The notes: a model not told the origin generated them from the sequence alone. Shown: positions 9,058-40,918, numbered from the stretch's first letter. The stretch is 64,000 nucleotides of DNA from an uncultured virus (IMG/VR IMGVR_UViG_3300034091_000306) (IMGVR_UViG_3300034091_000306), one strand, 5' to 3'. Program-made: numbers and translations.

Positions 9058-9630
9058 ATGTGGCCGACGTCCGACCATGACGGATCGCATGCATCTGATC
9101 TTGCCGTCCATCAAGGCGTGATCTCTTGTGTAGGCGTCGCCGCGCCCGCGCCGCCTCCGAACACGAATCCCGCCCCCAGCTCGAGCCCGACCGCGGTGGC
9201 TGCGGCGACGGCCGCTGTCGTTGTGGGCCTCATCATCGTCGTGAAGCTTGCCATCGTCTACTCGACGGCGAAGGACGTCGTTTCGACCGGCAAGCGCGCG
9301 GCAACGTGGGCGAAGAAAGAGCGCGATCAGCTTCGGGCGGCGAGGGCGGCTAAGGCCGCTGCGAAGGCGCAGGCCAAGGCTGAGAAGACAGCAGCCAAAA
9401 CAGCGAAACCGAATCCAGTGGCGACGAGCTCCACAGGTGGCCGGACGGTCGCCTACCGCGTGCGACTCGGCATCGATCCTTACAACGAGACGATCATCGC
9501 GCGTAGTGATGGTCGCGCCACTCTCGTTCGTCAACGAGTTCCGATTGCGACATTCCGACCGACGGAATATCAAAATGCGAAGATCCGATCTGGCTACGGC
9601 GAGGTCCTCGTCTTCACCGATCAGCTCTAA
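9058..9630 (+). CDS. membrane protein, TM followed by basic linker and NP motif
   Basis: hydrophobic AVVVGLIIVVKLAIVY, Lys/Ala linker, AKPNPV then small domain; start uncertain. Confidence 0.6.
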   Translation: MWPTSDHDGSHASDLAVHQGVISCVGVAAPAPPPNTNPAPSSSPTAVAAATAAVVVGLIIVVKLAIVYSTAKDVVSTGKRAATWAKKERDQLRAARAAKAAAKAQAKAEKTAAKTAKPNPVATSSTGGRTVAYRVRLGIDPYNETIIARSDGRATLVRQRVPIATFRPTEYQNAKIRSGYGEVLVFTDQL

Positions 9631-9644
9631 GAGGGATTTGTCTC

Positions 9645-10397
9645 ATGGAAGAGAATCAGAATAAGAGTGTGGGATTTGGCGCCGGAGCGCCCTTACCGCC
9701 CATCTCGACGCCCACATTAGTGCCGGCTCAGATCATAACTGATCTTCAGCTGCTCACGTCCATCGGCGAATACATCAATAGTCTCAAAGCAGGCGTTCAG
9801 AATCTACCCGACAACGTAGCGGCATTGACATCGGCGCTCACTGGAAGCACTGATCCCGTTGTTACCGATGCGCTGACGAGCATCACAAATGCTTACAACG
9901 CGGTATTCGGCAACGCTACTTTGGGTACGCCTGATGTGATGGCGGGCAATCAGCACTACGCTGTTCAAGATCTAACGAATTTCGCCAATTCATCTGTGGC
10001 GAGCTTGAACATGAATCGTGTAGCGCTTAGCACGCTGCAGAATCAAGTTGCAATACTGCAAGGTCAGGTCACAGCGCAACAGGCAACGATCGTTCAGCTC
10101 GAAGCAGGATCAGGAACAGCCGGCGGCGGCGGAGGTGGTGGCGGTAGCATTCCTCCTGTTGGCGTTCCACCAAAGCCCCCAGCAAAGCCGGCAACGAACC
10201 CAAATCAAATGTCCACGACGACATTTTTGGTCGGCGTCGCATCGGTGCTCGCGATCGGCGGTGGCGTCTGGTGGGTGGCTAGAAATGCGAAGGCAAAGGC
10301 GAAGGAAGCGCATGCCGCGGGCGCGTTCAAGCCGAAGCCTGCAGCTATCGCCGCCGCTGCGAATCCGAAGCGCCTCACAGCAGGGAGTAAACGATGA
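9645..10397 (+). CDS. coiled-coil membrane protein
   Basis: heptad segment LSTLQNQVAILQGQVTAQQATIVQLE, TM FLVGVASVLAIGGGVWWV, basic tail ending ANPKRL. Confidence 0.7.
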   Translation: MEENQNKSVGFGAGAPLPPISTPTLVPAQIITDLQLLTSIGEYINSLKAGVQNLPDNVAALTSALTGSTDPVVTDALTSITNAYNAVFGNATLGTPDVMAGNQHYAVQDLTNFANSSVASLNMNRVALSTLQNQVAILQGQVTAQQATIVQLEAGSGTAGGGGGGGGSIPPVGVPPKPPAKPATNPNQMSTTTFLVGVASVLAIGGGVWWVARNAKAKAKEAHAAGAFKPKPAAIAAAANPKRLTAGSKR

Positions 10398-11227
10398 CTC
10401 CGTGGATCGTCAGAGCCTGGTATCGCGGTCCGATCGATCCCATCCGCGACATGACGATTGATACGATCGGCACCGGCGCGGGCCTGGAGAAGATCGAAGA
10501 CGAATACAGCCGCAACATTCGTGGACGCTGGACACGATCGTTCTGGTTCGTCGCGCCGTCTCGCGCGGTGGCCGAGGATACCGTTGCGAGTCTCTATCGC
10601 GCCGGCATCCGGAAGGCCGATGCGATCCCCGGACGGGATGCGCCCGAACACGAGATCGCGGATTGGGACTGGCGCCGTGGAGCGCCCATCGCGAACCCGC
10701 TCAATCTCAGCCTCGAGAACAAGAAGCGGCTGATGATCGGCGCAGGCGTCATCGGTTTCGCTGCCATCGGCTACGCGATCTACTCGGCGATGAAGGCTGC
10801 GCCTGTAAGTAGCGGCGGCGGCGGCGCGATCGTCACGACGACGCCTGTGACTGGCGGTGGCTCATCAAGCGGCGGTAGTTCAGGTGGCGGAACCACATCG
10901 GTGGGACCCGTCACATCGGTTGTCACAGTCACAGCCGCAGACGCCGGCAAGACATTCAGTATGAATGTCGGAGACACGTTGAACGTCGTGCTCCCCGTGA
11001 CCGCGACTGTTGCCGGATACGACGTGGACACATCTACGCCCTCGGGTCCCAACATCCTTGCTGGCAGCAGCGCCGCAAACGCCTCCGGACAAACAACGAT
11101 GTCCTATACGGCGACAGCGACGGGATCAGAGACACTGAGCTTCTATTCAACCGATCTGACCGGAAGCATCGATTACACGATTCCGGCCTATATTTACACC
11201 ATCAACGTCGGTCCTGCTGTTGCCTGA
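10394..11227 (+). CDS. modular NP-TM protein with C-terminal chagasin/I42-like Ig domain
   Basis: IANPL + TM + Gly/Ser linker + TVTAADAGKTFSMNVGDTLNVVLP. Confidence 0.65.
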   Translation: MTPWIVRAWYRGPIDPIRDMTIDTIGTGAGLEKIEDEYSRNIRGRWTRSFWFVAPSRAVAEDTVASLYRAGIRKADAIPGRDAPEHEIADWDWRRGAPIANPLNLSLENKKRLMIGAGVIGFAAIGYAIYSAMKAAPVSSGGGGAIVTTTPVTGGGSSSGGSSGGGTTSVGPVTSVVTVTAADAGKTFSMNVGDTLNVVLPVTATVAGYDVDTSTPSGPNILAGSSAANASGQTTMSYTATATGSETLSFYSTDLTGSIDYTIPAYIYTINVGPAVA

Positions 11228-11237
11228 GGAAATCACC

Positions 11238-11870
11238 ATGCGCGCAGTTCTTGTTCCGGTAAAAGGACTACCACAAATAGTGAATATCGACGGATCCCTC
11301 CGATCTCTTCAGAAGCTGGTTGGCGGCTCCATAGAGCCTGTGGTGTGGAGAAAGGGATACATGGCGTGGGCCAATGAAGAAGGATTGATTCACGGTCTTC
11401 CGTACAACGACGGTCCGGTCGTCATCACGAGAAAATCGCAGGCACATTCGGGGTTGTCGGATCGCGACATCGATTACGTCATGATGGAGCTAGGAACTCC
11501 GATGGCATTTGGTACCGAAAAGGTCATCGTTCATCACGGTTCGAAATTGGGCGCATCGCTACCAGACGTGCCGGATGACGGGAATGTACACATCATCGGC
11601 GGGACGGCATTCGTGAATCGTCCGCCGCCTGGCGAACTTTCGCCATCCGCACTCCGTGCAAAGCCAAAGGCCGAACAGATCATCAACATCAACATCGAAG
11701 GCAAGCGCACACCCGTCCGTATAATCATTCGCCCTGACGGTGTCTATGCAGCCGGCGTCCAGAAGAAAGTCGGACGTACGTGGGTGAACATCATCGGCAC
11801 GGGCAATACACGTGAAGCAGCGCTCCATCAAATGCTCGCTCAATATGCAATCAGATTCGAGAGTCGGTAA
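11238..11870 (+). CDS. DUF3846-like domain protein
   Basis: SLRSLQKLVGGSIEPV...WANEEGLIHGLPYN. Confidence 0.65.
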   Translation: MRAVLVPVKGLPQIVNIDGSLRSLQKLVGGSIEPVVWRKGYMAWANEEGLIHGLPYNDGPVVITRKSQAHSGLSDRDIDYVMMELGTPMAFGTEKVIVHHGSKLGASLPDVPDDGNVHIIGGTAFVNRPPPGELSPSALRAKPKAEQIININIEGKRTPVRIIIRPDGVYAAGVQKKVGRTWVNIIGTGNTREAALHQMLAQYAIRFESR

Positions 11871-11885: not shown

Positions 11886-12287
11886 ATGTATTACGAAGAA
11901 GAAGAGAATCCGCTGAGCAGGAACGCCAAGATCGGCATCGGTGTCGCTGTCGCTGCTGCTGTTGGACTAGCCGTCTACTTCGTCAGTAGACCTGCAGCAG
12001 CATCTCCAAACTCTTCGCAGCCAGGAGCATCCGCACCGACGACCTACATTTTGTCCGCGTCGACGCCGACACTGTCGATCGTCGATACAACCGGCATCGT
12101 CTTGCAGCTTCCGCCTGGCGCCACGTGGGCTGCAGGTTCGGTAGCCAATGCATTAGTCGGCACGAACACACCGATCACTCTTCCGGTGATGCCGCCGGGT
12201 ACTTCAGCGCAAACGGTACCGGTGTATTGGACCGATGTGAGCGGAAAGCCGCAGACGACGACCATCACGTTCTCGGTTGGTACATAA
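11886..12287 (+). CDS. NP-TM protein with small beta-rich C-terminal domain
   Basis: EEENPLS + TM + LPPGATW...VYWTDVSGKPQTTTITFSV. Confidence 0.75.
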   Translation: MYYEEEENPLSRNAKIGIGVAVAAAVGLAVYFVSRPAAASPNSSQPGASAPTTYILSASTPTLSIVDTTGIVLQLPPGATWAAGSVANALVGTNTPITLPVMPPGTSAQTVPVYWTDVSGKPQTTTITFSVGT

Positions 12288-12298: not shown

Positions 12299-14392
12299 AT
12301 GAGCTCCGAATTTCAGCCCTCGGCCGCAAGTGCGCAAGGCATCGGCTCGACGATCATCCAGCAGACGTACCCCGACGGATCGAAGGGACTCGCCTTCTCC
12401 CTCGAACAGGTCGGCGCGCGCATGGTCAAAGGAAGATTGGACCCCCGCGTCCGATCGTGGGCGATTCGGACTTTGAAGGAAGCCGGCGATCCGCAGGGCA
12501 CCGTCAACAGGACACAAGCTTTGCTCGATGGTCTGCGGAAGGCGGCGATCTACGTCAACGATCCCGTGAATTCGGAATACATGCAGGCGGCACACGAGAC
12601 GCTGTGTTTGGACGACAAGGGATTTTGCTTCAAGGGAGGCGATTGCTTTCTCGACACCGAGATCGTCATACGTAAGACATCGATCGGAGGAACGGAGCGC
12701 GTCGCTATCAAGGACGTGAAGATCGGAGATCTCGTCTGGGGATGGAATACATGGACCGTCGTGGAAGCCGTTGCTGCGAAGGGAGAGCTATCTTTCAGTG
12801 GAATGCTCCTGGAAGGCCGCAGCAATCCGCTCTATCTGACAAAGGACCATCATGTCTTCATCAGGGATGGCGTGACGCATCGCCGTATCACGGTGAAGGA
12901 GCTACGAGTCGGCGACGAGCTTCTCACCTCCGACGAGATTCAGTCGCTCTCTCCATTCCCTGAAATCATCGAACTGCAGCATGATGTGAAGAAGGCGCAA
13001 GCCTTCGATATTCAAACGTCCGATCACTATGTCTATCTGTTAGACTACGACATCGTCGTCAGCCAATGCGACGACTTGAGCATAGCGCTAGGCTCCGCAA
13101 CCATGTCCGTAGGTATTCCTACCTACGTCGTCGCGCAGGCGTTCAACGGAGATTCTCTACCTTCTCACGTTCTCATCGGCGTCGAGGATCCGCAGTCAGG
13201 TCAGCGTTACCGCGTCGATCCCTCCACCAAGGAGAACGTCGGCTACTACAGCCACTTCACGAAGGAATGGTGGATCGATCCCATTTCGACAGCTCCGGTT
13301 TCATTGTCTGGAACTGGGAAGGTGGACGCAGACTTCGTTGGGGTCGGTCAACAAGCCTTTCAACAGGCGACCGCCGTTACCGCAGTCGCCTACAACGCGA
13401 CTGTTGCGCAGGTTCAGGCAGTCACCAAATCTCTCGCAGACGCACTCATCTCCGCAGAGTCAAAGCGCCAACTGATCGACCAAGTTTCTATCGCATTGCG
13501 GCCCGACGCACCATACGACGCGGAACCAACGACTCCGATCCAGAGCATTGCAGATTTTCCGATCGACGGGACATGGACCGCGAGCATGGCGCACGTCTCT
13601 GACGAAGTCATTGCAACGGGTCACGTCGTTCTTGCCGCTTTGAACGACGCGCTAAACGGTGCGCGTACCATCTATCTCGGCGCTAACGGTGTCGACGTCT
13701 ACATCGAAGCCAAATCGAGCGATAACACGTTCTATCAAATGGTTCTCGAGGGAGCGACCGACGGCATCCTAGGATTCATGAATCCTCTTGGAGTCATCCA
13801 AGGCGGAATAACGGTTCTCCTCGGCAAACTGCTTACGCCCGCACAAATAACTGCAGCGCAACAGGCACAAGTAGCCGGTCAACCGCCACCAGGCCTTAGC
13901 GGCGATGAAAAAAAGGGTCTGGGTCTCCCTCCCGCTGTCATCTTCGCCGGGCTGGTCACCATTGCGATTGTGACTGTCGCTGCCGCAATCGTAATCGTGA
14001 AGCTATGCACCACGCTGAACTATTATCTGGATTGGTGCACACAAAGACGACAGATCGAAGCAGCCATCGCGCTACTCAACTCCGGAAAGATCACGGTTGA
14101 TCAATACAACGCCATGACAAAGGCGGTCGCGGATCAACACGTCGCAGCGATCAACGCGCAGACCGAACAAGACAAGAACGATCCTTGGAAGGATCGCCTA
14201 GCGCAGATCGGCGACATCTTCATGTGGACCGCGATCGGCGGCGTCGCTATCGCCGGACTCATGGCGGCCGGTCCCTTCATCGCCGAAGCCGGCGCGGAAT
14301 TCCGTGCGAGGGGCGCAGCAAGACGCGCAGCCGCGCCTCCCGAACCCGCGCCCGAACACGAGCACCCTCATCTCGAACCCGAGCACGCCTAA
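12299..14392 (+). CDS. transglutaminase-like (Cys-His-Asp) protein containing a mini-intein, with C-terminal TM helices
   Basis: After intein removal GGD-CDDLSIAL...SHVLI...RVDPST gives the GDCDD / H / DP triad; two hydrophobic helices near the C-terminus. Confidence 0.8.
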   Translation: MSSEFQPSAASAQGIGSTIIQQTYPDGSKGLAFSLEQVGARMVKGRLDPRVRSWAIRTLKEAGDPQGTVNRTQALLDGLRKAAIYVNDPVNSEYMQAAHETLCLDDKGFCFKGGDCFLDTEIVIRKTSIGGTERVAIKDVKIGDLVWGWNTWTVVEAVAAKGELSFSGMLLEGRSNPLYLTKDHHVFIRDGVTHRRITVKELRVGDELLTSDEIQSLSPFPEIIELQHDVKKAQAFDIQTSDHYVYLLDYDIVVSQCDDLSIALGSATMSVGIPTYVVAQAFNGDSLPSHVLIGVEDPQSGQRYRVDPSTKENVGYYSHFTKEWWIDPISTAPVSLSGTGKVDADFVGVGQQAFQQATAVTAVAYNATVAQVQAVTKSLADALISAESKRQLIDQVSIALRPDAPYDAEPTTPIQSIADFPIDGTWTASMAHVSDEVIATGHVVLAALNDALNGARTIYLGANGVDVYIEAKSSDNTFYQMVLEGATDGILGFMNPLGVIQGGITVLLGKLLTPAQITAAQQAQVAGQPPPGLSGDEKKGLGLPPAVIFAGLVTIAIVTVAAAIVIVKLCTTLNYYLDWCTQRRQIEAAIALLNSGKITVDQYNAMTKAVADQHVAAINAQTEQDKNDPWKDRLAQIGDIFMWTAIGGVAIAGLMAAGPFIAEAGAEFRARGAARRAAAPPEPAPEHEHPHLEPEHA
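12644..13066 (+). mobile_element. mini-intein (Hint domain, 141 aa), C-terminal Gln
   Basis: starts CFLDTEIV; block B LTKDHHVF; block F AFDIQTSDHYVY; ends VVSQ before the +1 Cys. Confidence 0.85.
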
Positions 14393-14959: not shown

Positions 14960-15223
14960 TGCAGAGCGAAAACGTTCATGGCCGCTGAGAAATCGTATGT
15001 CGACATGATGAGAAAGTCGCGGCAAACGCAGCCGCGAGTGGCCGTTGGCGTTGTGCTTGATGCGCCCCGTCGCAAACGGACTCGGAAAATCTTGCCGGCC
15101 GTCAAGGCGACATCGAAACGAACAGGCACTAAATCTCGCTTGCAGAAAAGTCAAGACACCCATATCGTCTCTGTACCGGGGCGCACTTCCAAGCGCCAAC
15201 GCCACATCAAGAGGACTGCATCC

Positions 15224-16894
15224 ATGGCGAAGAAGAAGACCAAGCGCAACGCTCGCGGACATTTCGTCAAGTCGAATCCGCGCAAGCGCGCGAAGAAGCG
15301 TGCGGCTCCGAAGAAACGCTCGGCGAAGCGGCGCAGCTCTGGTCGCAAGACGAAGCGCGCACACGCTTCGGGGCGGAGCAAGGCGAAGCGTCGCGCGGCG
15401 ATGCGGAAGCCGGCTCCTCGCAAAATCTCGAAGCGCTTGAAGCGTGCCGCGACTGGCGAGTTCAAGGCGCGTCGTCGTCACAAGGTGCGGTCCTACGCAC
15501 GCAAGACGAAGTCGGGTCGCTCGGCCCACGTGAAGACGCACTACAGCTACGAGGAAGAAGCACCCAAACCGCGTCGTCGCCCTCGTCGGCGCGCACGCGC
15601 TCGCGAGGAGGTCGTTCAAGAGATGTACACCGCGAACCCGCGCCCCCGGCGCAAGGCAAAGAGGCGTCCGGCACGGAAGAACCCGCGGAAGCGTACGACG
15701 CATCGCAAGAAGGCGCGCCGCAATCCGACCCGGCGTTCGCGGAGCGCGTCGATTCCGGCGAAAACTCGCCGCCGCGTTCGTGGTCGAACGGTGACCCGTC
15801 CGGCGAGCGTTCGCATCACTCTCCTCGACAAGCGCGGCGGAACGCGCCGTTCGGCCAAGCGTCGATCGCCGAAGCGGCGCTCCTACAAGAAGAAGGGGCG
15901 CGGGAAGAAGCGCGCGAAGCGTACGCCTGAGCATCTCCGTCTCCCGCCGGCTTCGGCGATGATGGAGAACCCGCTCGGGTTCGGCTTCGAAGGCATGGAA
16001 GACTACGCGATGGAGAACCCGCTTTCGGGCGGGGAGCTCGCGCTGGCCTTCGTGACGGGCGGTCTCGGCATCGTCGCCGGCAGCATGCTCGATCGGTACA
16101 TCGCGACGTACGCCGGCATGGCGGCGACGGGCGGTCCTGGTCAGGCAGGTACGATGTCGAACGGCGCAGCCATCGCGGCGGCTCCCGGCATCTACCGTAT
16201 CCTCGCGCAGGCAGGGCTCGCGGCGGCGTTCATCCTTCCGGCGCACTTCGTCCATCAGCCAATGGGCCGTGCGGCTCTTCAGGGTGCTGGACTCGGCGTC
16301 GGCGTTCGTCTCGCGGGGCAGCTCCTCGAGTCGTACGTCATCCAGAAGTTCTTCGGGCTCAGCTCGGCCGGCGCCGTCACGGCGTTCGGTTCGCGGTTCT
16401 ACCCCGTCGAAATCGCGTCCACGACGCTCGCTGGGCAGTTGGCCGCTTCGCCGCCAACCGCGACTTCGGGTTCGCTTCCGACGGCTCTTACATCGCAGGG
16501 CCTTAGCGGATCGCGTCGCGCGCTCCCGTACGGGACGCGCCCGGTCGTTCAGCAGCAGGTTCAGCAGCAGCGCAATGGCGTTGCGGGCTGCGGCTTCAAT
16601 GGCAGCTGCAGCGGAAGCTGCGGTGGCGGGAACTGCGGTGGAAACACCGTAAGCGGCGGGGCTCCTGCCGCGAACGCGCTGGCGAATCTGTATCAGCAGG
16701 CCGTGAATCAGGCTCCTCCCGGCTGGATGCCGGAAGGCAATGGCCCGTGCGCATCCAACAACTGCGGTCCGCCTCCTCAGCAGCCCGTGCAGACACCGCC
16801 TCCCACGCCTCCCGCGTCCAACGTGGCGCCCCTGAGTGGCGTCAATGGTGTTGGTGTCGGCAGGATGCCGGTGTGGATCGGTAGGGACGACTGA
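15224..16894 (+). CDS. Arg/Lys-rich putative DNA-condensing core protein with membrane segments
   Basis: ~245 aa highly basic N-terminus with repeated NP (SNP, ANP, KNP, RNP, ENP x2), three hydrophobic segments, Cys/Gly/Pro tail; AAGAGGA RBS before ATG 15224 (ORF is open from 14978). Confidence 0.7.
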   Translation: MAKKKTKRNARGHFVKSNPRKRAKKRAAPKKRSAKRRSSGRKTKRAHASGRSKAKRRAAMRKPAPRKISKRLKRAATGEFKARRRHKVRSYARKTKSGRSAHVKTHYSYEEEAPKPRRRPRRRARAREEVVQEMYTANPRPRRKAKRRPARKNPRKRTTHRKKARRNPTRRSRSASIPAKTRRRVRGRTVTRPASVRITLLDKRGGTRRSAKRRSPKRRSYKKKGRGKKRAKRTPEHLRLPPASAMMENPLGFGFEGMEDYAMENPLSGGELALAFVTGGLGIVAGSMLDRYIATYAGMAATGGPGQAGTMSNGAAIAAAPGIYRILAQAGLAAAFILPAHFVHQPMGRAALQGAGLGVGVRLAGQLLESYVIQKFFGLSSAGAVTAFGSRFYPVEIASTTLAGQLAASPPTATSGSLPTALTSQGLSGSRRALPYGTRPVVQQQVQQQRNGVAGCGFNGSCSGSCGGGNCGGNTVSGGAPAANALANLYQQAVNQAPPGWMPEGNGPCASNNCGPPPQQPVQTPPPTPPASNVAPLSGVNGVGVGRMPVWIGRDD

Positions 16895-17025: not shown

Positions 17026-18321
17026 ATGTCGAAGAACAGCGCCGTGAAAATGTCTCCGCCCATCTCGCGTCACATCGGTCTCGGCCTGGAGCCGGACAAG
17101 ATGAAGGGCCTCGGGCAGCAGCCCCTCGAAATCCTGCAGTGCGGGATGAATCTGCTGCCGCAACTCGAGTGGACGACCATGACGGTCGAACTTCCAATCA
17201 CACAGGCGCAGATCGCGTCGACCTTCGGGCCGACGGTTCCGCTCGTGGGCGTCGGCGCGAACCCGCCCGGCGTCGCGTCGGTCGACAGCACGTTCCTACA
17301 GAACAGCTCGACGCTCCAGTGCGACATGCTCTGCATGGCGTACGGCGTTCAGCTCCTCGCGGAGCCGATCTCCTTCGCGCAGGTCGGTGTCGCAGTTCCC
17401 GCGACGGCGACGACGCCTGTGTGGTCGGCGGATGCGTTCACGCAGCTCGATCTCGTCAACGGCGCCCTCGGGCCGCTCAGCACCGAGTGTCAGCCGGCGA
17501 TCTTCCAGTACGGCCGCTCGGCGCAGCTTGCGATGTGGGAGCTGGCGCAGGCCTACAAGTTCGTGTGGACCATGTATCAGCGTCAGATCGCCGTCGAAGA
17601 GATGGTGCGTGACGTTGCCTACTTCGGTTCGCTCTCGCAGGTCTTTGGTGCGTCGGACAGCGATCAGGAGATCCAGACCTACGCGAAGAAGGCCAACGCA
17701 AACTACCGCCAGCTCGGCTCGCCGACGGTCTTCCAGCCGGCGTATTCGCGCCGTGTTGGGCAGGTTCAGACGGCGAACACCGTCACCCCCGGGAGCCCCA
17801 CCGCCCTCTTTCATGCGACGAACGACTTCACGCTCGCTGCGACTACGATCGGCGGCATCGCCGTCCAGAACACGGGCCCCGGCAACGGGCAGCGTCGGCG
17901 TCTCGCGAAGCCGCTTCTCCTCGAAGCCGGCATCAACATCGGCCTGAACCTGGAAGTGGTCGACGAGCCGCACTACCAGGCCTTCGCGCAGTACCTCGAC
18001 ATCTCGGAAGGCGTCGGCGGTCTGACGGCCATCGTGTCCTTCGACACCCAGATGAACGGTCTTTCTACCGGCACCGGCAACGCGAACACCGGTATGGAGC
18101 AGTCGTCCGACGCGGTGGCGGTCTACTCGACGCAGCAGGTCAACACCAACCGAACGATTTTCAAGGCCGGCAGCTGCTCGATCGGCGTCCAGCTCTACGG
18201 CTGGGAGCTCTGGGGCTGCTGGAAGGAATGGGCCTGCAACAACTGGCAGGGGTGCATCACCGTTCCGGGAACGGCCCCGCGCAGCGATCAGACGGCGATG
18301 TCTGGCCTTCCCCGTCGCTGA
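17026..18321 (+). CDS. candidate major capsid/structural protein
   Basis: 431 aa, no TM, beta-rich, strong C/G-ending codon bias, GAAGGA RBS, flanked by hairpins; the fold cannot be confirmed by eye. Confidence 0.45.
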   Translation: MSKNSAVKMSPPISRHIGLGLEPDKMKGLGQQPLEILQCGMNLLPQLEWTTMTVELPITQAQIASTFGPTVPLVGVGANPPGVASVDSTFLQNSSTLQCDMLCMAYGVQLLAEPISFAQVGVAVPATATTPVWSADAFTQLDLVNGALGPLSTECQPAIFQYGRSAQLAMWELAQAYKFVWTMYQRQIAVEEMVRDVAYFGSLSQVFGASDSDQEIQTYAKKANANYRQLGSPTVFQPAYSRRVGQVQTANTVTPGSPTALFHATNDFTLAATTIGGIAVQNTGPGNGQRRRLAKPLLLEAGINIGLNLEVVDEPHYQAFAQYLDISEGVGGLTAIVSFDTQMNGLSTGTGNANTGMEQSSDAVAVYSTQQVNTNRTIFKAGSCSIGVQLYGWELWGCWKEWACNNWQGCITVPGTAPRSDQTAMSGLPRR

Positions 18322-18338
18322 GAGCTTCGCTAGATGAT

Positions 18339-20029: not shown

Positions 20030-20204
20030 ACAGCGACAACCCCTGGATTCCTATCGCTATCGGGGTTCTCGGCTTGGCGACCGGACTGGGATTGGCTTGG
20101 GTCGTAACGCGGCCGAAATCCATTGAGCATTTGGCACAAGAGAAGCTGATGGAAGACGCTGTGAAGAATCACGTGAAGCGGTTGAAGTCAAAACGAGGTC
20201 GGCG

Positions 20205-31956: not shown

Positions 31957-32511
31957 TCACTTGTCGATCCCCTGATAATCCGTCATACGAATCATGTGCT
32001 GATTGAAGTGCGCTATACCAAGAGTGCGCGGGTGCCCTGTCACCCGTCGAATACGAATATTGGGAATCTCCATCCCCCGCAACGTGGGAGTACCTAATAG
32101 TCGTTTGGCTTCATCAATGAGATTGACTCCCGCCAGCACAAGCGCCCTTGGCGTGGGACAGGTCCTAGGTTCACGGCGCCGTCGTGGAGGCGGGGGCGGC
32201 GGTACGTAACGCGGAGACGGCGGCGGCGCATAGCGCGGAGGCGGCTCGTAAGGCCGTCCGATGTACTCCGGCGGAATTGTCCCGGCTGTCGGATAGGCCA
32301 TCGGAGTAGGCGCGCATTCCACGGGAGGAACGATCCATCGACCCGTTCCATCCGAGAATATTTCGCGGATCGTGATGGGTCCCGTCCTCTCGAGCTGCTT
32401 CGCAACGTCGGGAACCGTTGTGATGTCCGTGACCGTGACGGCTTCCGTGGGAGACGTGATCACGTACGAAGATGTCTCAACAGGATTCGCGAAGCGTAGA
32501 AAAGCGTGCAT
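31957..32511 (-). CDS. FLRF-NP leader protein; probably truncated
   Basis: MHAFLRFANPV; N-terminal domain paralogous to 58244..59851; the tail (IRIRR...TLGIAH...IRM) resembles the start of a SprT-like domain but stops before any HExxH. Confidence 0.55.
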   Translation of the reverse strand: MHAFLRFANPVETSSYVITSPTEAVTVTDITTVPDVAKQLERTGPITIREIFSDGTGRWIVPPVECAPTPMAYPTAGTIPPEYIGRPYEPPPRYAPPPSPRYVPPPPPPRRRREPRTCPTPRALVLAGVNLIDEAKRLLGTPTLRGMEIPNIRIRRVTGHPRTLGIAHFNQHMIRMTDYQGIDK

Positions 32512-32545
32512 CACAGCTCCTTCAAAGCGTCCTGCCCATTATCGG

Positions 32546-33331
32546 TTATATGTACTTCCGCGGCCCGAAACCTCTAGGCAATCTGTACACACCGGGACCT
32601 GCTCGTAGATGAACCTCGATCTGGAGAGACGACTTTCGATTTGCCAGAGCTTTGTATTGTTCTGCAAGCGGATCGGACAACTTCCATGTCTCCGTCGGCG
32701 TCTCGTAGCCGCGTCCCGCGTCGATGAACTTCGTGCTCAGCGCTGACATCTTCTTGTCGCTGCTGTCCAATTCCTTGTTGATTGCCGCGGCCGACATGAA
32801 CTTCGGGTCTGGCCGCTCGCCACCACGAGGGTTAGGAAGTGGATGGCCGATCATCGAATGCTTCGATGCATACAAAATTGTCCCGACGATGAGTCCTCCG
32901 CCCGCGAACGCTAATACCGCCGGCATCCAATTCATCGGAGGCGGCGAGGTTTCCTGTTGATACTGCTTCGCTTCTGCCGGACTGACCGGTGCGTAATAGT
33001 CGAGCGTCGCGTAGTATAGCTGCCCCGAGCTAGTCGGTAGCGTCGTCGAAATACCAGGCCACGTCGCGATGACCCAGAACGCATTTGGTGAAGAGCCAGA
33101 AGGAAGTCCGGTCTCCTGAAGCACACCGGAAATCGCCTGCATCACGTCTGGCGGCGGAGCACCGATGGAAGTGATGTTCCACCCCAGACCTTCAAGGAAG
33201 GTCTGCGTTTGATCATCGGTCCACGTGTTCGGGACGATGACCGCAAAGCGGTAGCGCCCGCCGGGTTGAACGACGCGATCGATCTCGGGCTCCCATTCGA
33301 AGTTCTGAACGGGCGAAGTCATCGCGGACAT
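32546..33331 (-). CDS. membrane protein, TM followed by NP + helical domain
   Basis: WMPAVLAFAGGGLIVGTILYA then PLPNPR. Confidence 0.7.
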   Translation of the reverse strand: MSAMTSPVQNFEWEPEIDRVVQPGGRYRFAVIVPNTWTDDQTQTFLEGLGWNITSIGAPPPDVMQAISGVLQETGLPSGSSPNAFWVIATWPGISTTLPTSSGQLYYATLDYYAPVSPAEAKQYQQETSPPPMNWMPAVLAFAGGGLIVGTILYASKHSMIGHPLPNPRGGERPDPKFMSAAAINKELDSSDKKMSALSTKFIDAGRGYETPTETWKLSDPLAEQYKALANRKSSLQIEVHLRAGPGVYRLPRGFGPRKYI

Positions 33332-34788: not shown

Positions 34789-36558
34789 ATGAGCGCAGCC
34801 CTTCGATCCAACCCCCGATCGCCCTTCGTCGACGCAGGTCATGCGAAGCAAAATCTCATCCTCTACGCGATGCACACGAGCGCGCTCTACGACGCGCGCG
34901 TTCGGCTCGACAAGCTGATCAAGCGCCAGATCGAGACGGGACACTATTCGATCGAGGGAGGTCAGAAGCTCTGGCGTGGGTGGTTCGATCACGCGGCGGC
35001 TTTGTACCAGAAGGAATTCGGCGGTGATTCGTCGATTCGTTTCCCCGACGCTGTCAGGAACGCCGCAACGAAGGAGTGGGAGGAGACCGAACGAGAGTAC
35101 ATCGCCGAGGGATCGACGCCGGCAGGGAAACCCTTCGAGGGAGAGAAGCCGAACCCACTCGCTCGTCAGGGCTACAGGCGCCGTGCGGCGCTCAACAAAG
35201 ACCTCGAGCGCTACTACTCGGGGTGCATGACCGGTCACTCTGCGAAGCGTTTCAAATCGAAGGCGCGGCGTGAATCGTACTGTTCGGCGGTGAGTTGGAA
35301 GGTCGCGCGTCAAGCGGGACGCTATCCCGACTACTTCAAGGGCGTGCGGAGCAATCCCGTCTATGGCGCCTATGCTCTCGTCATCGCCGCGATTCCGTCT
35401 GGTAAGGCGACGCATGTAGAGGCAGAAGTCGTTGACGTCACCGCGACACGCGAAGCCGCGATGAGGGAACTTGCGATCCAGCAACGACGAACGGTCGGCA
35501 TGGATTCAGCGGGTATGGCGTGGGCTGTCGTTCGCTTGCCGCATACAGATGTGCCGCGAGGAACCGTCGTACGTGTTCCCGTGAAGGGGTTGAAGTTCTC
35601 GTTCGATGATGCAGGGAGCATGTCGATCAAGCGCAATCCGATCGATCGTCAGCTGACCAAGCTAGAAGCTGGAGAACTCCGAAAAGTAGCGAACAACGAA
35701 GGAATGCTCGACAGCGATCAGCTCATGATTCGTCGCCGTCTCGCGGACATGGGCTATCTCGACAAAGATTTGAGGTTGACCGCAAAGGGTCGCGCGTACT
35801 TCGTCGTGATCAAGGAGACTCCGATGCCGATGATGACGATGATCAAGAATCCGCTGCCGTGTCCTTGTGAGAAGAATCCAATTCTGACTTGGACGACTAA
35901 TCAGTACGGACGTTTTCCATACACGGCTGCTGTCACTCCAAGCGGCACCTATGTAATCAACAAGGCGTTCATGCAGATGGCTGAGAATGCATACACACTT
36001 CAGTTGATGCGTGGCGGCAGGTCTCTATCGCTCGGAGATTATCGTAGTATCGCTGAAGCGAAAGCTGTTGCACAACATGATATAGATAGCGGGAAGATCC
36101 ACAACTTCGGTATGGCGCGTGAGAATCCGCTCAAGAACCCCCTCAGCACCCCTGTAAAGACCGGAATCATCGTTGCGGGTGTCGTCTTCGTTGCAGGTCT
36201 CATTTACGCAATGACGACGAAGACCGCGTCAGCAGCGCCCGCTTCAAGTTCACCGTCAACACCGCTACAACCGCCAATACAACCACCGCCTGTACAACCG
36301 CCGGTTGTTGTTACACCGTCGGCAGTAAAACCGGTGACTTTGGAACCAGTAAACTTCCAAATCGTATATCTCCTTGGCGCCACGACTGTGTTGGTTAGTC
36401 TTCCGGCAGGAGGGGTGTGGGCATCAGCGGTGGGATCAAATGCGGCTGGACCTGCAGGCACATCTACGCCTGTATCGCTTCCGGTAGGTATATTTGATTT
36501 CTTCTGGACCGATTCGAGCGGAAATCCACAACATACAACCATGAGCATTTCTGCCTAG
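34789..36558 (+). CDS. polyprotein-like ORF with eight NP motifs, then TM and beta domain
   Basis: RSNPR, KPNPL, RSNPV, KRNPI, KNPL, KNPI, RENPLKNPL + TM + LPAGGVW...FWTDSSGNPQHTT. Confidence 0.8.
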   Translation: MSAALRSNPRSPFVDAGHAKQNLILYAMHTSALYDARVRLDKLIKRQIETGHYSIEGGQKLWRGWFDHAAALYQKEFGGDSSIRFPDAVRNAATKEWEETEREYIAEGSTPAGKPFEGEKPNPLARQGYRRRAALNKDLERYYSGCMTGHSAKRFKSKARRESYCSAVSWKVARQAGRYPDYFKGVRSNPVYGAYALVIAAIPSGKATHVEAEVVDVTATREAAMRELAIQQRRTVGMDSAGMAWAVVRLPHTDVPRGTVVRVPVKGLKFSFDDAGSMSIKRNPIDRQLTKLEAGELRKVANNEGMLDSDQLMIRRRLADMGYLDKDLRLTAKGRAYFVVIKETPMPMMTMIKNPLPCPCEKNPILTWTTNQYGRFPYTAAVTPSGTYVINKAFMQMAENAYTLQLMRGGRSLSLGDYRSIAEAKAVAQHDIDSGKIHNFGMARENPLKNPLSTPVKTGIIVAGVVFVAGLIYAMTTKTASAAPASSSPSTPLQPPIQPPPVQPPVVVTPSAVKPVTLEPVNFQIVYLLGATTVLVSLPAGGVWASAVGSNAAGPAGTSTPVSLPVGIFDFFWTDSSGNPQHTTMSISA

Positions 36559-36570: not shown

Positions 36571-37251
36571 ATGATGAATCCGGTAACGTCATGTGCGTGT
36601 GAAGGAACAGACGGTCCTTCAATTTTGAGTGAGCTTCGTCAAGCGGCGCAGCGTCGAGGAATCATCAATGTGTCTTCCGTTGCGACGATCGATCTCGTTC
36701 GTTACGTGCAAGCACTTCGTACGGGTGGATCTGTCGAACGTTGGAGTCTCGCTCGTCAGCGCATGTACAACCACGAACTAAGACAACTTGGTGTATCTAC
36801 AGCACGTGAAAATCCCATCAGTACTCCCGTGAAGACGGGAATCATCGTTGCGGGTGTCGTCTTCATTGCAGGTCTCGTCTATGCGATGACGACGAAGTCT
36901 GCGTCCGCAGCGACCAGTCTAACGCCCATCTTCGTGACCGATCCTGTAGGCGGCCAGGCTATCCTGCTCACTCCCGGCAATATGGGGAGCATCAACGTCG
37001 TCAGCTCGGCGAGTTCGTCGCCGACGAGCGCCGTTCAACCTCAAATTTTCAACATCCTGGCACCATCGGGCGGGCGCATCCTCAACGTCGCGAGTTCGAA
37101 CACGAACGTCCTGTCTAGTATGGCCGGATCGACATTGACGGCCGAGGTGGCTCTTGGATCTGCGCTGCTCCCCGGTACGACGATCATTACGGTGTCGTGG
37201 TCCTTGAACGGCGCACAGCAGACATCGTCGTTTGTCGTCATCGCAAACTGA
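36571..37251 (+). CDS. NP-TM modular protein
   Basis: RENPISTPVKTGIIVAGVVFIAGLVYAMTTK, near-identical to the anchor of the previous gene. Confidence 0.75.
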   Translation: MMNPVTSCACEGTDGPSILSELRQAAQRRGIINVSSVATIDLVRYVQALRTGGSVERWSLARQRMYNHELRQLGVSTARENPISTPVKTGIIVAGVVFIAGLVYAMTTKSASAATSLTPIFVTDPVGGQAILLTPGNMGSINVVSSASSSPTSAVQPQIFNILAPSGGRILNVASSNTNVLSSMAGSTLTAEVALGSALLPGTTIITVSWSLNGAQQTSSFVVIAN

Positions 37252-37259: not shown

Positions 37260-37880
37260 ATGAGCATGAATCTCGTCGCGAATCCGATCGAAGCATCAGC
37301 TGCTGAACGTCGCTGGGCACGAGAGGCTGTACGTATGGGGCGCTTCCTTGCACGGCATCAGATCGAGCGAGGTAATGGCAGGCAGATGAGCACAGAAAAA
37401 GCGATCGAGTTCTTCGAACGCTTTCACGGCTTCCCGCACTGGGCGGCGGAAATTGCGGCTGTCTCCTACGAGGACACGTGGGCAAAGCTTGTTGGAAGTC
37501 AGATGAATCCTCTCAGTCTCGAAGGGATGAAGGAGAATCCCCTCGGCGAGGGCATTCTCGCACTCATCGGTCTCGCGACCCTCGGAACCATCGCGTACTT
37601 TTGGTACAAATCAAGCGTACCTCCGACAACGACCAATCTGTCTGTAACGGTTCAACCAGGACCGATGACGGTGTCTGCGAACGGCGCGTTGAACGTCTAC
37701 GCTGTTCTTCCCTCAGGAGGAACATGGCTCACTGCCTCGAACAACACATCACTCGACGTAGGATCGATCAATCCGATCTTGATCGCCGGGCCATATCCTG
37801 CCACACCGGTAGCATTTTCGTGGTTGTCTCCTGCAACAGGGAACGTTCCGCAGACAACAACGCTCACCGTGAATCAGTAA
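37260..37880 (+). CDS. NP-TM modular protein
   Basis: VANPI, QMNPL, KENPL + TM + LPSGGTW...PQTTTLTV. Confidence 0.75.
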   Translation: MSMNLVANPIEASAAERRWAREAVRMGRFLARHQIERGNGRQMSTEKAIEFFERFHGFPHWAAEIAAVSYEDTWAKLVGSQMNPLSLEGMKENPLGEGILALIGLATLGTIAYFWYKSSVPPTTTNLSVTVQPGPMTVSANGALNVYAVLPSGGTWLTASNNTSLDVGSINPILIAGPYPATPVAFSWLSPATGNVPQTTTLTVNQ

Positions 37881-37881
37881 A

Positions 37882-38574
37882 ATGCAAGTCATCAAAGCCG
37901 AAGATCTCCTCGACGTCGCCGATGAGGCGCAGCACTGGTATGCCGCCCAAGGCGATCCGGTCTACGCGCTAGTTTCGAGTGTCTATGCAGGACAGGACGT
38001 ACCGCTCGACGTTGCTGAGGATGCGCTCCGTAATCTGGAGAGAGACTACAGGAAGGCGAAGAAGCGTCTATCTGCTGATGCGCAACGAGATCATGATCTC
38101 TACAAGCTCGAAGAAGCGATTTACGAATTGCGGCTGTTGATCAACGAGGTCCGTACGCATGCGGCACGCTTGCCGAATCCCCTAAGCCTCCGCACCAAGG
38201 AGTATCTCCTCGGGGGAGGTCTTCTCGCAGCCGTCATCGGTGTCGCCGTTCTGCTCCGCAGCAAAACACCTCCGCCGCCCGTGAAAATCGTCACGGTGAC
38301 AGGTTCTGGGCCCGTCACACTCAACGTAGGCGATGTCCTCACGGTCGCCCTCCCGCTGGTGTCGAGCGGGAACCTCTACGCCGCATCACCATATCCTCAG
38401 GCCTACGTGAAGGAGGGATCACAAAGCGTGACCGGTCTTACGATGACGCAGAGCTGGATCATGCAGACTGCCGGCACGGTGACGATCACTTACCAAGAAA
38501 TGCTCAACGCCTTCGGGACGGGCTATGTCGCATCGAACACTCCTCCTGTCGTCATCACCATCACGGTGCAGTGA
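37882..38574 (+). CDS. NP-TM modular protein with I42-like Ig domain
   Basis: LPNPLS + TM + VTLNVGDVLTVALP. Confidence 0.7.
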   Translation: MQVIKAEDLLDVADEAQHWYAAQGDPVYALVSSVYAGQDVPLDVAEDALRNLERDYRKAKKRLSADAQRDHDLYKLEEAIYELRLLINEVRTHAARLPNPLSLRTKEYLLGGGLLAAVIGVAVLLRSKTPPPPVKIVTVTGSGPVTLNVGDVLTVALPLVSSGNLYAASPYPQAYVKEGSQSVTGLTMTQSWIMQTAGTVTITYQEMLNAFGTGYVASNTPPVVITITVQ

Positions 38575-39338
38575 TGAGCGAGTATCTCGTCGAATACTTG
38601 AACGATCGTGGAAATGTTCCAGGTATCGGTCCCGAACGAGGCGTAAAGCGCTTCAACGGGATCAGCCGGTACACAAGTCCGCACGGCAGCTATCGCTATG
38701 TCATGTATGTGAATGGCACGCCTGTCTCGGCGCTCCAAGTCGTCTCTCGTGACGGCGTCCACGCGAAGATCGCCAACGTGTACACGGTTCCAGCAGAGCG
38801 TAGAAAGCGCTTCGCCGAGACTTTGCTCATGAAAGCACGCACGGACTTCAATACGGTCGAACACGCCGATCCTGAGATGCTCACGTCTACAGGTAAGCGC
38901 TGGCGCGACACGGTCAAGGAGAACCCCATCGATCGCTACTGGTACTGGATCGGTGCCGGCGCTGCGGTCATCGGCACCTACGCCATCTGGCAGTATCTGA
39001 ATGCAACAGCGCAGGCGAAGCTCGAGTCGAGCGTTCCGCCAGGAGTGCCGCTTACATTCCAGCCGACTGACGAAACGGATCTATACGTCGTGCCGACTTC
39101 TAGGGAAAATGTCATGCTCTCATTGAGCTCAACAAACAAGATGCTCAATTACATCAACTTGCACTTCGCGCCGAATGGGCAGCTTTCAAGTAGCGACACG
39201 ACAGCGATCTCGATCGATCCGACAGCTACTGGTGCAAAGGTAACAGCGCTCGCTCTTGGCGGCGCGGTGATTACGATCAACTACGATGATCCGTCGGGGA
39301 AAAGCGACGCGATTATTGGTGTAAGCGTGTACGAATGA
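38571..39338 (+). CDS. GNAT-like domain + NP-TM + beta domain
   Basis: AKIANVYTVPAERRKRFAETLL resembles GNAT motif A; KENPI + TM. Confidence 0.65.
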   Translation: MMSEYLVEYLNDRGNVPGIGPERGVKRFNGISRYTSPHGSYRYVMYVNGTPVSALQVVSRDGVHAKIANVYTVPAERRKRFAETLLMKARTDFNTVEHADPEMLTSTGKRWRDTVKENPIDRYWYWIGAGAAVIGTYAIWQYLNATAQAKLESSVPPGVPLTFQPTDETDLYVVPTSRENVMLSLSSTNKMLNYINLHFAPNGQLSSSDTTAISIDPTATGAKVTALALGGAVITINYDDPSGKSDAIIGVSVYE

Positions 39339-39537: not shown

Positions 39538-39888
39538 ATGAAAACGCTTCCATACAACCGATACATCACGAAGATCGCCGATCATTTGGTCGATGACTAC
39601 AATTTGCATCCCGATGATGCGGTGGAGCTCATCGACATGAATCAGCGGAATGTCATCCACTGGTATGGAAGTGCGACACCAAAATTGGTGGCGTACCAGT
39701 TGATGCTTCAGCTGCGGAGCATGGTCACAGCGAATCCGATCGACGTACCGCACGTTGCGTTGACGCTGGGCGCGGTGAGCGCACTAGCTGTCGGAGTCTT
39801 CCTGATCGCCGAAGCTGTGAAGCAGATGAACCAACCCGTGCCAGAACCAGGCTACGTCTACAACCCGCCGACGACACTCTACGTTTGA
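39538..39888 (+). CDS. NP-TM small protein
   Basis: TANPIDVPHVALTLGAVSALAVGVFLIA. Confidence 0.65.
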   Translation: MKTLPYNRYITKIADHLVDDYNLHPDDAVELIDMNQRNVIHWYGSATPKLVAYQLMLQLRSMVTANPIDVPHVALTLGAVSALAVGVFLIAEAVKQMNQPVPEPGYVYNPPTTLYV

Positions 39889-39905
39889 ATTTCTAGGAGA
39901 TTCTA

Positions 39906-40226
39906 ATGGGTACCCTTCTACGATTTCAGCCGGCTGACCGACGAGGTGCCCACAGTGGGGGGTCGTTGTGGTTCGTGGAGGCGGGCTGGCACGGCATCGA
40001 CTGGCCGATGCGGGACGCGCTCACGAAGCGCGTTCGGGGTAGTGTGGGATCCGGGATGGACATGACGTCCAAGCGCTACGACATCACATGGACGGCAAAG
40101 ACAGAGAAACGTGCGCGGGCCATCGCGTCGAAGATCGGTGAAGCGGTCTACGGCGAAAATGATCTGCGCGTACGCCATGGCGTTCCTGTGACGCACGTTC
40201 GTTTGAACGTCTATCGAGGAGATTGA
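39906..40226 (+). CDS. hypothetical protein with LLRFQP leader
   Basis: MGTLLRFQPA immediately followed by the motif-encoded DRRGAHSGG. Confidence 0.6.
   Translation: MGTLLRFQPADRRGAHSGGSLWFVEAGWHGIDWPMRDALTKRVRGSVGSGMDMTSKRYDITWTAKTEKRARAIASKIGEAVYGENDLRVRHGVPVTHVRLNVYRGD
39936..39962 (+). repeat. dispersed motif, copy 9 (in frame)
   Basis: GACCGACGAGGTGCCCACAGTGGGGGG. Confidence 0.93.
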
Positions 40227-40228
40227 TC

Positions 40229-40918
40229 ATGAGCGGCTTTTTGCAGCTGAATCCGCGCCCCAAGATCAAGGTCCCTGCGCAGCCGGGCGACGTCGTCCTC
40301 CTTACACCCGGCGCTCTATCAGATCCTAATGGACGCATTCACTGGTGGAAGTTCGTGATGGACTTCGGAAGACCGGACGGAACGCGCGGTACGTCGAATT
40401 GGCTCGTCGCTAGTCACAAATATGCGGCGCGACACAACTTCGATCCTGAAACATTTCAGATAATCGGTGACGTTACCTGGGAGGCAGAATTTACGTCTCC
40501 TGATGGCGGCATCAATGCAGATGTGTTTCTTGGCTTTATGCAAGGAGAGCGTGAGCGTCCGAACCCCGTCGGCCCCGTGGCCGCGGTCAACACCTACGCC
40601 GCGCTCCGCAACCGCGCCAAGACGTACGGCCTGACCGATCGTGACCTCGAGCTCCTCGGCGACATCGCGCGGCCGTTCGGGCAGCGGAGGATGCCGTTTC
40701 CGGGCGCTAGCAGCGCGTATGATCGGCGGTACGCAAAATTACTCCAGGCGGGCTTGACGCATCTCAAGTCGCCGGCTCCTGGTGTGGTCATCGATCACTT
40801 TCTCCTCACCGATGATGGGAAACGGCTCTTGACCGGTGAAGGACACGGTCGACGGAGACTGAGGTCGCCGTATGTTCGTCCGCGGAAGCTCGGATCTTCA
40901 GCGTTGACCAATCGATGA
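40229..40918 (+). CDS. two-module protein with FLQLNP leader and internal NP
   Basis: MSGFLQLNPR ... ERPNPV. Confidence 0.6.
   Translation: MSGFLQLNPRPKIKVPAQPGDVVLLTPGALSDPNGRIHWWKFVMDFGRPDGTRGTSNWLVASHKYAARHNFDPETFQIIGDVTWEAEFTSPDGGINADVFLGFMQGERERPNPVGPVAAVNTYAALRNRAKTYGLTDRDLELLGDIARPFGQRRMPFPGASSAYDRRYAKLLQAGLTHLKSPAPGVVIDHFLLTDDGKRLLTGEGHGRRRLRSPYVRPRKLGSSALTNR

Follow-up and report, generated by a model that had tools for sequence, protein, structure and literature searches.

A conserved Asn-Pro signal marks module junctions of predicted membrane-anchored proteins in an uncultured virus-like element

Introduction

Polyproteins and short cut-site codes typify eukaryotic viruses, and in a few large phages they also characterise head maturation. 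Head-maturation proteases of T4-type phages remove leader tags (T4 gp21, acting on capsid-targeting sequences, and gp175 of the phiKZ type), and at T4/phiKZ-type sites, which have Glu as their last residue, an assemblin-type serine protease cuts within the tailed-phage prohead. Autoproteolysis at Asn-Pro is known from FlhB/EscU (NPTH) and reovirus mu1 (N42-P43), and sortase B signals (NPQTN/NPKTG followed by a hydrophobic helix and a basic tail) stand at the C-terminus, after a secreted passenger with a signal peptide. In the account of the single-pass protein RsgI, the Asn-Pro pair that is cut near the helix occupies a turn joining strands beta1 and beta2 in the periplasmic domain, and mu1 and VP5 are mentioned alongside it (PMC10328401). 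Polyvalent proteins of phages and conjugative elements are described as large soluble enzyme arrays with embedded zincin-like peptidase domains (PMC5512222). Here we analyse a stretch of 64,000 nucleotides from an uncultured virus (IMG/VR IMGVR_UViG_3300034091_000306; the whole stretch is hereinafter designated the window), in which the dipeptide Asn-Pro (NP) recurs at module boundaries of many proteins encoded between positions 9058 and 40918. A preliminary description of this region had proposed that NP is a protease site or a docking motif, that it tethers cargo to a viral membrane, and that modules are shuffled at NP boundaries.

Results

NP is concentrated on one side of the membrane helix

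We selected 94 open reading frames (ORFs) in the window, 49 of which begin inside 9058-40918 and 45 elsewhere; proteins are named below by the first coordinate of their ORF. The 49 ORFs contain 58 NP against 29.9 expected from composition, so the enrichment check named in the preliminary description, once run, came out in its favour; 2000 within-protein shuffles of the same ORFs gave a mean of 30.8 (sd 5.3) and a maximum of 51. The remaining 45 ORFs contain 19 NP against 16.4 expected. The residue after NP is L, I or V in 31 of the 58 cases and G in none.

All 13 proteins that had been listed as carrying NP ahead of a hydrophobic helix do carry it there, at a spacing of 0-13 residues (Table 1). 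The converse arrangement, NP following a transmembrane helix, had been claimed for six proteins and is clear in three, where NP lies 10 (20205), 7 (24409) and 11 residues (32546, minus strand) after the helix. It is looser in 28209, where NP stands 24 residues past the third helix, and ambiguous in 9058 and 9645, each of which has one NP 9-12 residues before a helix and another 28-52 residues after. The count of five NP in 24409..25575 is correct, while 34789..36558 contains nine and not eight, with eight preceding the helix and one in the beta domain.

When 17 single-pass window proteins are split at the helix, there are 35 NP on the NP side, where 5.2 are expected, and 5 on the beta-domain side, where 14.8 are. 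The side is defined by one NP per protein; with those 16 removed, the NP side still contains 19 against 5.2. The adhesin-like beta domains placed on the other side are real lectin and Ig-like domains. Among the modules ascribed to the NP side, the basic domain is real, and the GNAT-like resemblance amounts to a Pfam match below cut-off (E 0.006). The observation of NP punctuation is confirmed and is stronger than first described.

A family of paralogous anchors has kept only N and P invariant

Nine of the listed proteins share one C-terminal module, in which NP is followed by a Gly/Ala-rich helix that closes with an aromatic residue and then K/R, by a Ser/Thr/Pro/Gly linker and by a small beta domain of 80-90 amino acids (aa) with the pattern L-x-L-P-x-G-x-x-W ... 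W ... G-x-x-Q-T-T (hereinafter designated the anchor). Pairwise identity among the nine modules is 23-41% (alignment A2), and the only invariant columns are N and P; selection has preserved just these two residues among the nine paralogues, and no part of A2 is conserved well enough to serve for a contig scan. Because the anchors are paralogues, part of the pre-helix NP pattern is inherited.

When a profile built from these nine modules was run against 1.84 billion representative proteins, 139 clusters matched at E <= 0.001, 8 of which are the window's own proteins. Among 121 non-window matches of at most 450 aa, 117 have a predicted helix, and NP lies at most 13 residues upstream of it in 78. 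Thirty-seven of the 39 members without NP begin at most 15 residues before the helix, having either no N-terminal extension or a later start called; the remaining two are P0111 and P0043, the latter a fragment that lacks the anchor. NP is accordingly found in 78 of roughly 80 family members having an N-terminal extension. Further upstream, in 35 N-terminal extensions of at least 30 aa, NP occurs 38 times against 7.3 +/- 2.5 expected (maximum 17 in 1000 shuffles), a count that is independent of the profile, whereas the 80 parts beyond the helix contain 33 against 33.3 expected.

Lys and Arg residues average 2.59 in the 15 residues before the helix versus 1.04 after it, and are more numerous on the N side in 52 of the 78 family proteins and less numerous in 8. 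Because K and R are concentrated there, the NP side is probably cytoplasmic and the beta domain external by the positive-inside rule. The anchor family appears to consist of lineage-specific, much duplicated, single-pass membrane proteins. At the outer end of the anchor, 30721-31524 (+), P0022 and P0027 carry a lectin-like domain (B_lectin; putidacin L1-type, below cut-offs).

The seam signal spans six positions

A logo of the 80 pre-helix sites gives the consensus [R/K]-E-N-P-[L/I]-[S/T] (hereinafter designated the seam), with R/K at -2 in 43 sites, E at -1 in 32, L/I at +2 in 64 and S/T at +3 in 51. No SP, TP or DP substitute is seen at the pre-helix NP place. Flanks that are specific over six positions have a width typical of a site read by another protein. 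Tandem seams with spacers too short to fold also occur (NPLKNPL, NPLSFEGMKENPL, MNPLSNPIS). Many family members open with Arg-rich leaders, such as M-x-RRRRRR-NP, and short unrelated leaders (Arg-rich, acidic and FLRF-type) terminate in NP ahead of protein bodies. Six window ORFs share the leader M-x(1-4)-F-L-[RQ]-[FWL]-x(0-3)-N-P, seemingly a common N-terminal tag that stops at an NP seam; ORF 39906 has the leader MGTLLRFQP, in which the Asn is missing.

Met is overrepresented in the four positions ahead of internal seams (-4 to -1), at 9 of 26 where 2.5 are expected and at 15 of 83 where 6.9 are, and may be either a scar of former N-termini or part of the motif. Internal translation starts at these residues were considered and rejected, as a Shine-Dalgarno-like sequence precedes 1 of 15, compared with 39 of 94 annotated starts and 52 of 358 other internal ATGs. 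Ribosome skipping of the 2A type (D-x-E-x-N-P-G/P, the slash marking the break) was likewise rejected, with no NPG and no NPGP in the 94 ORFs and no NPGP in the family. Prepilin-type and Tat signals do not fit either, since by eye there is neither G/F..E nor RRxFLK, and NP stands anywhere from 0 to 13 residues ahead of the helix.

A Cys-x-Cys pair adjoins NP seams in 34789-36558 (residues 354-365), 36571-37251 (residues 3-11), P0002, P0077 and P0103, as in NPLPCPCEKNP, MMNPVTSCACEG, NENPCGCKENP and MPCSCRQENP. Near the membrane, such a pair could bind a metal or receive a lipid.

Modules are exchanged at the seams

The proposal that modules are shuffled at NP boundaries is borne out by homologues, in which modules are inserted, deleted, permuted and re-fused at seams. 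Relative to 34789-36558, which has two homologues (P0002 and P0003), P0002 contains an extra 63-aa module between ...KPNPIAR and ...WPNPIAR, P0003 is devoid of a 98-aa module flanked by two NP, and further blocks of 60 and 96 aa differ likewise at seams. The C-terminal 214 residues of P0002 match the entire neighbouring protein 36571-37251, which starts MMNP; as the alignment reads, this is a fusion or fission exactly at a seam. In P0153, a homologue of 24409-25575, the first module after the helix is absent through an NP-to-NP deletion, and a copy of the same module is found at the C-terminus behind RRNP, which on comparison of the two sequences is a module permutation. All five indels of at least 60 aa in alignments A1 and A4 end at most 9 residues from NP at both ends (distances 4/4, 7/3, 2/9, 3/1 and 2/4), with NP at a density of about 1 per 65 residues.

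Modules also keep differing company. P0060 joins the first module of the soluble protein 40223-40918 via ...ERMNP to a transmembrane-beta anchor, and modules of the type GY[ND]P-AYAELLQREGMGPYEL... recur in differing contexts in P0126, P0129, P0027 and 24409. P0067 shares the N-terminal module and the tandem seam of 37260, and P0071 is a homologue of 38571 with the same seam. Such free order fits independently acting units. The shuffling requires no role of NP in recombination itself, because only junctions in linkers survive selection and every linker has NP.

An AlphaFold model of 34789, built with three sequences, has a mean predicted local distance difference test (pLDDT) score of 42.1. 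All nine NP lie in stretches with pLDDT <50, between better-predicted blocks, a pattern that could arise by chance roughly 3 times in 100 because the model is poor (395 of 589 residues <50). One helix, 123-147, begins exactly at P123 in this weak model, and after NP8, NP189 and NP283 the next element follows 5-8 residues on and is once a strand. The model weakly favours linkers over a universal helix cap.

The transglutaminase-like protein does not track the NP system

The preliminary description had nominated 12299..14392 as the enzyme that cleaves at NP. Alignment A6 of this protein and its homologues shows a transglutaminase/papain-like Cys-His-Asp core with C257, H290 and D307 invariant, and the L002 homologue matches Transglut_core clusters of the Atlas, mostly viral, with a feature score of 0.90 and a structure TM of 0.75-0.79. 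The insert-split window protein gave no Pfam match (PF01841 included), and a sequence search against solved structures matched neither it nor 17026. With its two C-terminal membrane helices, 12299-14392 is membrane-bound and could face the seams, and it is possibly a cysteine protease. As the NP cleaver it nevertheless has no specific support. The enzyme does not track the NP system, because homologues occur in the L002, L004 and L009 lineages, where NP enrichment and anchors were not found.

The coding sequence is interrupted directly before the catalytic Cys by an insert of 141 residues that looks like an intein. It begins with Cys and ends Ser-Gln, with Cys as the next residue, whereas inteins usually end His-Asn, and Pfam gave no match to a Hint/intein domain in 12644-13066. 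The insert is missing from the L002 and L004 homologues (A6), and the L009 homologue (L009:6250-7881) bears its own LAGLIDADG-containing insert.

More distant relatives share a gene core, and the NP system was not found in them

More distant relatives were found through the beta-sandwich protein 17026-18321, which has homologues of 33-38% identity on 36 viral contigs from IMG/VR, 4-127 kb in length (most >=50 kb), and others on contigs binned into metagenome-assembled genomes (MAGs) of three phyla. When NP was counted in +/-10 kb around this core gene on the 36 IMG/VR contigs (L009 included), there was no overall enrichment (480 against 442.2 expected), and [RKE]NP[LIVM] occurred 26 times in 207,616 aa, compared with 14 times in 10,667 aa of the window region. 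The A2 profile found no anchor family member in the 36 IMG/VR loci or in the three MAGs holding L002-L004, which are incomplete or partial samples. Scans of viral contigs with 12299-14392, A1 and A5 gave no matches, nor did tblastn of three proteins against phage records. A metagenome scan with A1 returned a sole locus, L001, which we discarded as spurious since it lies antisense to a transketolase-like ORF.

17026 is modelled as a beta sandwich (pLDDT 59.8, predicted template modelling score 0.62). Foldseek gave best E values of 0.41 against PDB and 0.011 against BFVD, which are weak and generic, and the best VIA Z was 6.2. Jelly-roll capsid proteins from viruses that contain a membrane (SPV1, PRD1 P3, P23-77 VP17 and HCIV-1) score Z 5.5-5.9 amid many generic sandwiches, and unrelated sandwiches score as high; the Atlas yielded nothing usable for this fold. 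A capsid role of 17026 is accordingly putative, and so is the viral-membrane setting assumed in the preliminary description.

The syntenic core, 17026-20029 (+), is shared with L002, L003, L005 and L009, and includes Gln/Pro-rich, LysM, transglutaminase-like, 150-aa and Arg-rich proteins together with the 430-aa beta-sandwich protein and proteins of 200 and 300 aa; no Walker A ATPase and no named virion gene lies nearby. Third-codon-position G+C of 17026 and 18403 is 0.83-0.86. The Arg-rich core protein 14978-16894 has homologues at L002:8093-9853, L004:2976-4613 and L009:8101-9831, with an Arg-rich tract of 250-330 aa (PRRRRRR repeats in relatives) ahead of a Gly/Ala-rich hydrophobic domain, and may be a membrane-bound nucleic-acid-binding protein. 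In the window protein, MENPLGF...MENPLSGGEL lies between the basic and hydrophobic domains; among relatives, LSNP[LM]S precedes the hydrophobic domain in L002, L008 and L034 and not in L004, L009 or L020.

Origin and gene content of the window

The window belongs to a contig of 140.6 kb, and contigs of 159.6, 149 and 111.7 kb carry close relatives. Its G+C content is 58-60%, its ORFs are densely packed and mainly on the plus strand, and no tRNA was found in it. Near-identical DNA from parts of the stretch is present in four peat metagenome runs, whose contigs are short, with joints having sides of <30 letters at 80% likeness; there is no RNA run among the sequencing runs listed as containing the stretch. 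The source is apparently an uncultured peat-soil virus-like element with no host assigned: we call it virus-like because relatives of the core protein sit on IMG/VR viral contigs and MAG-binned contigs, and peat-soil because of the DNA in peat runs.

Only a handful of the 94 ORFs are named by Pfam, PHROGs or NCBIfam (Table 1), and these databases identify no tailed-phage hallmark gene in the 64-kb window. RadC-type genes lie in the neighbourhood. The 94 ORFs contain no Walker A motif, and none is conserved near the core gene in the 36 loci. Upstream of the NP region, 6946-8970 (+), with a homologue at L002:702-2264, encodes a conserved protein with a very long Gln/Pro-rich low-complexity middle, and QQ occurs 66 times against 14 expected in ORFs outside 9058-40918. 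Throughout the window, T-ending codons are preferred over C-ending codons before any Pro codon, for 14 amino acids.

Table 1 Coordinates of NP proteins and other features of the window (TM, transmembrane helix; database, named by Pfam/PHROGs/NCBIfam)
Coordinates	Strand	Feature	NP before helix (Asn residue)	NP codons or basis
397..951	+	N-terminal leader MTFLRWQRNP (FLRF..NP tag)		
1247 (inside ORF 1223-1696)	+	FLRF..NP tag		
1693..2376	+	FLRF..NP tag		
3961..4767		RadC		database
10394..11227	+	Family member, 100-aa N-terminal module before NP-TM-linker-beta	N101	10694-10699
11220..11870		DUF3846		database
11886..12287	+	Minimal family member: MYYEEEENP-LS, Gly/Ala-rich TM, S/P linker, small beta domain	N8	11907-11912
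12299..14392	+	Transglutaminase/papain-like protein, two C-terminal TM helices		
12644..13066	+	Intein-like insert, 141 aa, directly before invariant catalytic Cys (CDD)		sequence comparison
14978..16894	+	Arg/Lys-rich basic domain of ~330 aa, four RxNP, then hydrophobic Gly/Ala-rich domain (listed earlier as 15224)	N347 of long ORF	16016-16021
17026..18321	+	Conserved beta-sandwich (jelly-roll-like) core protein, used to find relatives; putative capsid role		
20026..20208	+	Short NP-TM protein, MNSDNP-W..TM	N5	
20205..22541	+	Reverse order: N-terminal family-type beta domain, long external part, TM, KKPMKNP, 80-aa C-terminal module		
22562..23854		LysM		database
23862..24404	+	Family member; reference row of alignments A2 and A5	N61	24042-24047
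24409..25575	+	Reverse order: short external N-terminus, TM, QRRALRNP, five NP-bounded modules		
26555..27088		Dual-specificity phosphatase		database
30721..31524	+	Family member, beta then lectin-like (B_lectin / putidacin L1-like) domain	N14	30760-30765
31521..31832	+	Short NP-TM protein, MTVDNP-LVIG..	N5	
31957..32514	-	FLRF..NP tag		
32546..33331	-	TM, then LPNP 11 residues later		
34789..36558	+	Multi-module: eight seams in N-terminal 450 aa, TM, linker, beta	N446, N450	36136-36141
36571..37251	+	Family member starting MMNP	N81	36811-36816
37260..37880	+	Family member, NP at residues 8, 83 and 93 (tandem NPLSLEGMKENPLGE) before TM	N93	37536-37541
37882..38574	+	Family member	N99	38176-38181
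38571..39338	+	Family member, weakly GNAT-like N-terminal module	N118	38922-38927
39538..39888	+	65-aa helical module, NP, TM	N66	39733-39738
40223..40918	+	Soluble two-module protein: leader MIMSGFLQLNP (FLRF..NP tag), module, ERPNP, module		
40915..41109	+	FLRF..NP tag		
51432..52496		Tyrosine integrase		database
window ORFs		DUF6919, peroxiredoxin, HNH, DUF2786		database

Discussion

We favour, tentatively and at somewhat less than even chances, the reading that the NP seam is a putative cut site of a trans-acting protease. The seam signal, [R/K]-[E]-N-P-[L/I]-[S/T] with NP as its invariant core, lies on the probably cytoplasmic face of the membrane, in proteins where variable small modules are followed by NP, then by a Gly/Ala-rich helix and a Ser/Thr/Pro linker, and last by a small Ig-like beta domain; it also joins soluble modules to each other, and short leaders to bodies. 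An endoprotease at the inner membrane face would read the seam in trans. The multi-module proteins would on this view be polyproteins tethered to the membrane, from which cutting would free small proteins and leave a bare anchor with its outer beta domain, and module order would be immaterial. We arrive at this reading because module order is free, short leaders end in NP, specificity spans six residues and sites occur in tandem. Read more broadly, the element may string dozens of small free-standing proteins on anchors in a plug-and-play manner, in which any NP-flanked module could be gained, lost or moved, with the NP code at the inner face releasing or loading them, a picture that we regard as possible and rather on the unlikely side.

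Several points weigh against cleavage. Apart from the transglutaminase-like protein, Pfam, PHROGs and NCBIfam reveal no recognisable protease in the 64-kb window, and that protein is also found in relatives where neither NP enrichment nor the anchor family was found. Trimming 1-5 residues off proteins that begin MxNP would serve no evident purpose. N-P-x-[S/T] also forms a textbook N-cap box for helices, and in the weak model of 34789 helix 123-147 starts exactly at P123; the placement of NP in low-confidence stretches of that model may be accidental. The family profile includes the NP columns, slightly favouring matches with NP.

The specificity and one-sidedness of the signal argue equally for binding without cleavage, in which [R/K]ENP[L/I][S/T] would act as a short linear motif for a putative hub protein at the inner face of the membrane (a matrix, capsid or assembly factor) that recruits the anchors and their strung modules to an assembly site or particle, with repeats adding avidity. 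Tandem copies and motifs at the extreme N-terminus next to the helix suit binding better than cutting, and docking and cutting can coexist where a leader tag first targets a protein and is then removed. Docking, however, requires neither free permutation nor seams between soluble modules far from the membrane (40223); we consider it unlikely, though a serious contender. A purely structural origin is a little less likely again. Here NP-[L/I]-[S/T] would be a helix N-cap or turn that is spread by duplication and recombination and read by nothing. Asn serves well as an N-cap and Pro is favoured in the opening position of a helix, in keeping with the modelled helix at P123; the paralogy of the nine anchors accounts for part of the pre-helix pattern by inheritance, and the Met excess at seams fits fusion of former N-termini. 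Ordinary caps, however, interchange S, T, D, N and G, whereas N-P is invariant here among anchors of 23-41% identity and present in 78 of about 80 members with an extension. The elements that follow NP8, NP189 and NP283 in the same weak model stand off by 5-8 residues, one of them being a strand; the hydrophobic residue at +2 and R/K-E at -2/-1 are not cap features; and seams between unrelated modules share the motif, beyond the paralogous anchors.

Two further explanations fare worse. Self-cleavage by asparagine cyclisation, as in FlhB/EscU (NPTH), reovirus mu1 (N42-P43) and RsgI, would use the identical scissile N-P pair, and RsgI is likewise single-pass and cut next to its helix (PMC10328401). 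The known cases, however, need a folded domain, whereas the linkers here are varied, apparently unstructured and placed between unrelated modules; the seams lie on the membrane side opposite to that of RsgI and have no conserved His/Thr following, which makes self-cleavage improbable. A signal at the DNA level, with the AAY-CCN codons serving as a recombination or nucleotide motif and the dipeptide as a by-product, might be suspected from the exchange of modules at seams and from an AAT:AAC ratio of 49:28 in NP versus 195:373 elsewhere (odds ratio 3.3). This AAT preference follows from the genome-wide NNT-before-CCN rule, which is general and holds for 13 other amino acids at a pooled odds ratio of 4.8. 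All eight NP codon pairs are in use, the NP excess is frame-specific and side-specific at the protein level, and six bases give no homology for recombination, so a DNA signal can hardly be credited.

If seams are cut or bound, one logic unites the roughly 130 database clusters of unnamed proteins, a simple rule suffices to delimit modules in these dark genomes, and a minimal recognition motif is at hand for tests. Clean evidence of module permutation is rare among ordinary multidomain proteins. If true, the proposal would describe a new proteolytic or docking code and a new organisation of accessory genes in viruses of bacteria or archaea.

Among described systems, polyvalent proteins resemble this one in having many unrelated effector-like domains per polypeptide, thought to be released by proteolysis, and RadC nearby (Iyer et al. 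2017, PMC5512222). They have no common seam motif, whereas the modules here are of 40-100 aa, share one conserved seam, and are mostly anchored, with an outer Ig-like domain. Membership of that class, which is marked by 2-15 recognisable conflict-related enzyme or DNA-binding domains in one polypeptide and often an MPTase peptidase, was rejected, as Pfam, PHROGs and NCBIfam find no family in 34789 or 24409 and no peptidase.

The Asn-Pro lyases share with the present proteins the conserved N-P pair. Theirs lies in one conserved folded domain, whereas here the seams number in the dozens and sit in unrelated linkers on the K/R-rich side, between unrelated modules, in what a weak model renders as low-confidence coil, and with no TH after NP. 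Sortase B signals are similar in having NP-x-[S/T]-x, a hydrophobic helix a few residues on and then K/R. We rejected such a signal, in that the N-terminal side is Arg-rich and has no hydrophobic signal, with K+R higher before the helix than after it, and a linker and a beta domain of at least 90 aa follow the helix.

T4 gp21 and phiKZ gp175 offer a likeness in logic: a short motif stands at leader-body and module boundaries of many unrelated proteins, in both cases with varying leaders and swappable bodies. The present system departs from them in its Asn-Pro core and its membrane-anchored proteins; its cleavage is putative, and Pfam, PHROGs and NCBIfam reveal no such protease in the window. 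The literature that we found on Asn-Pro cleavage describes no phage or virus system of the NP-seam kind, and we know of no membrane-tethered, freely reshuffled junction code with an Asn-Pro core described so far. What is new in this junction code is its unusual core, its membrane-tethered layout and its unusually clear module permutation.

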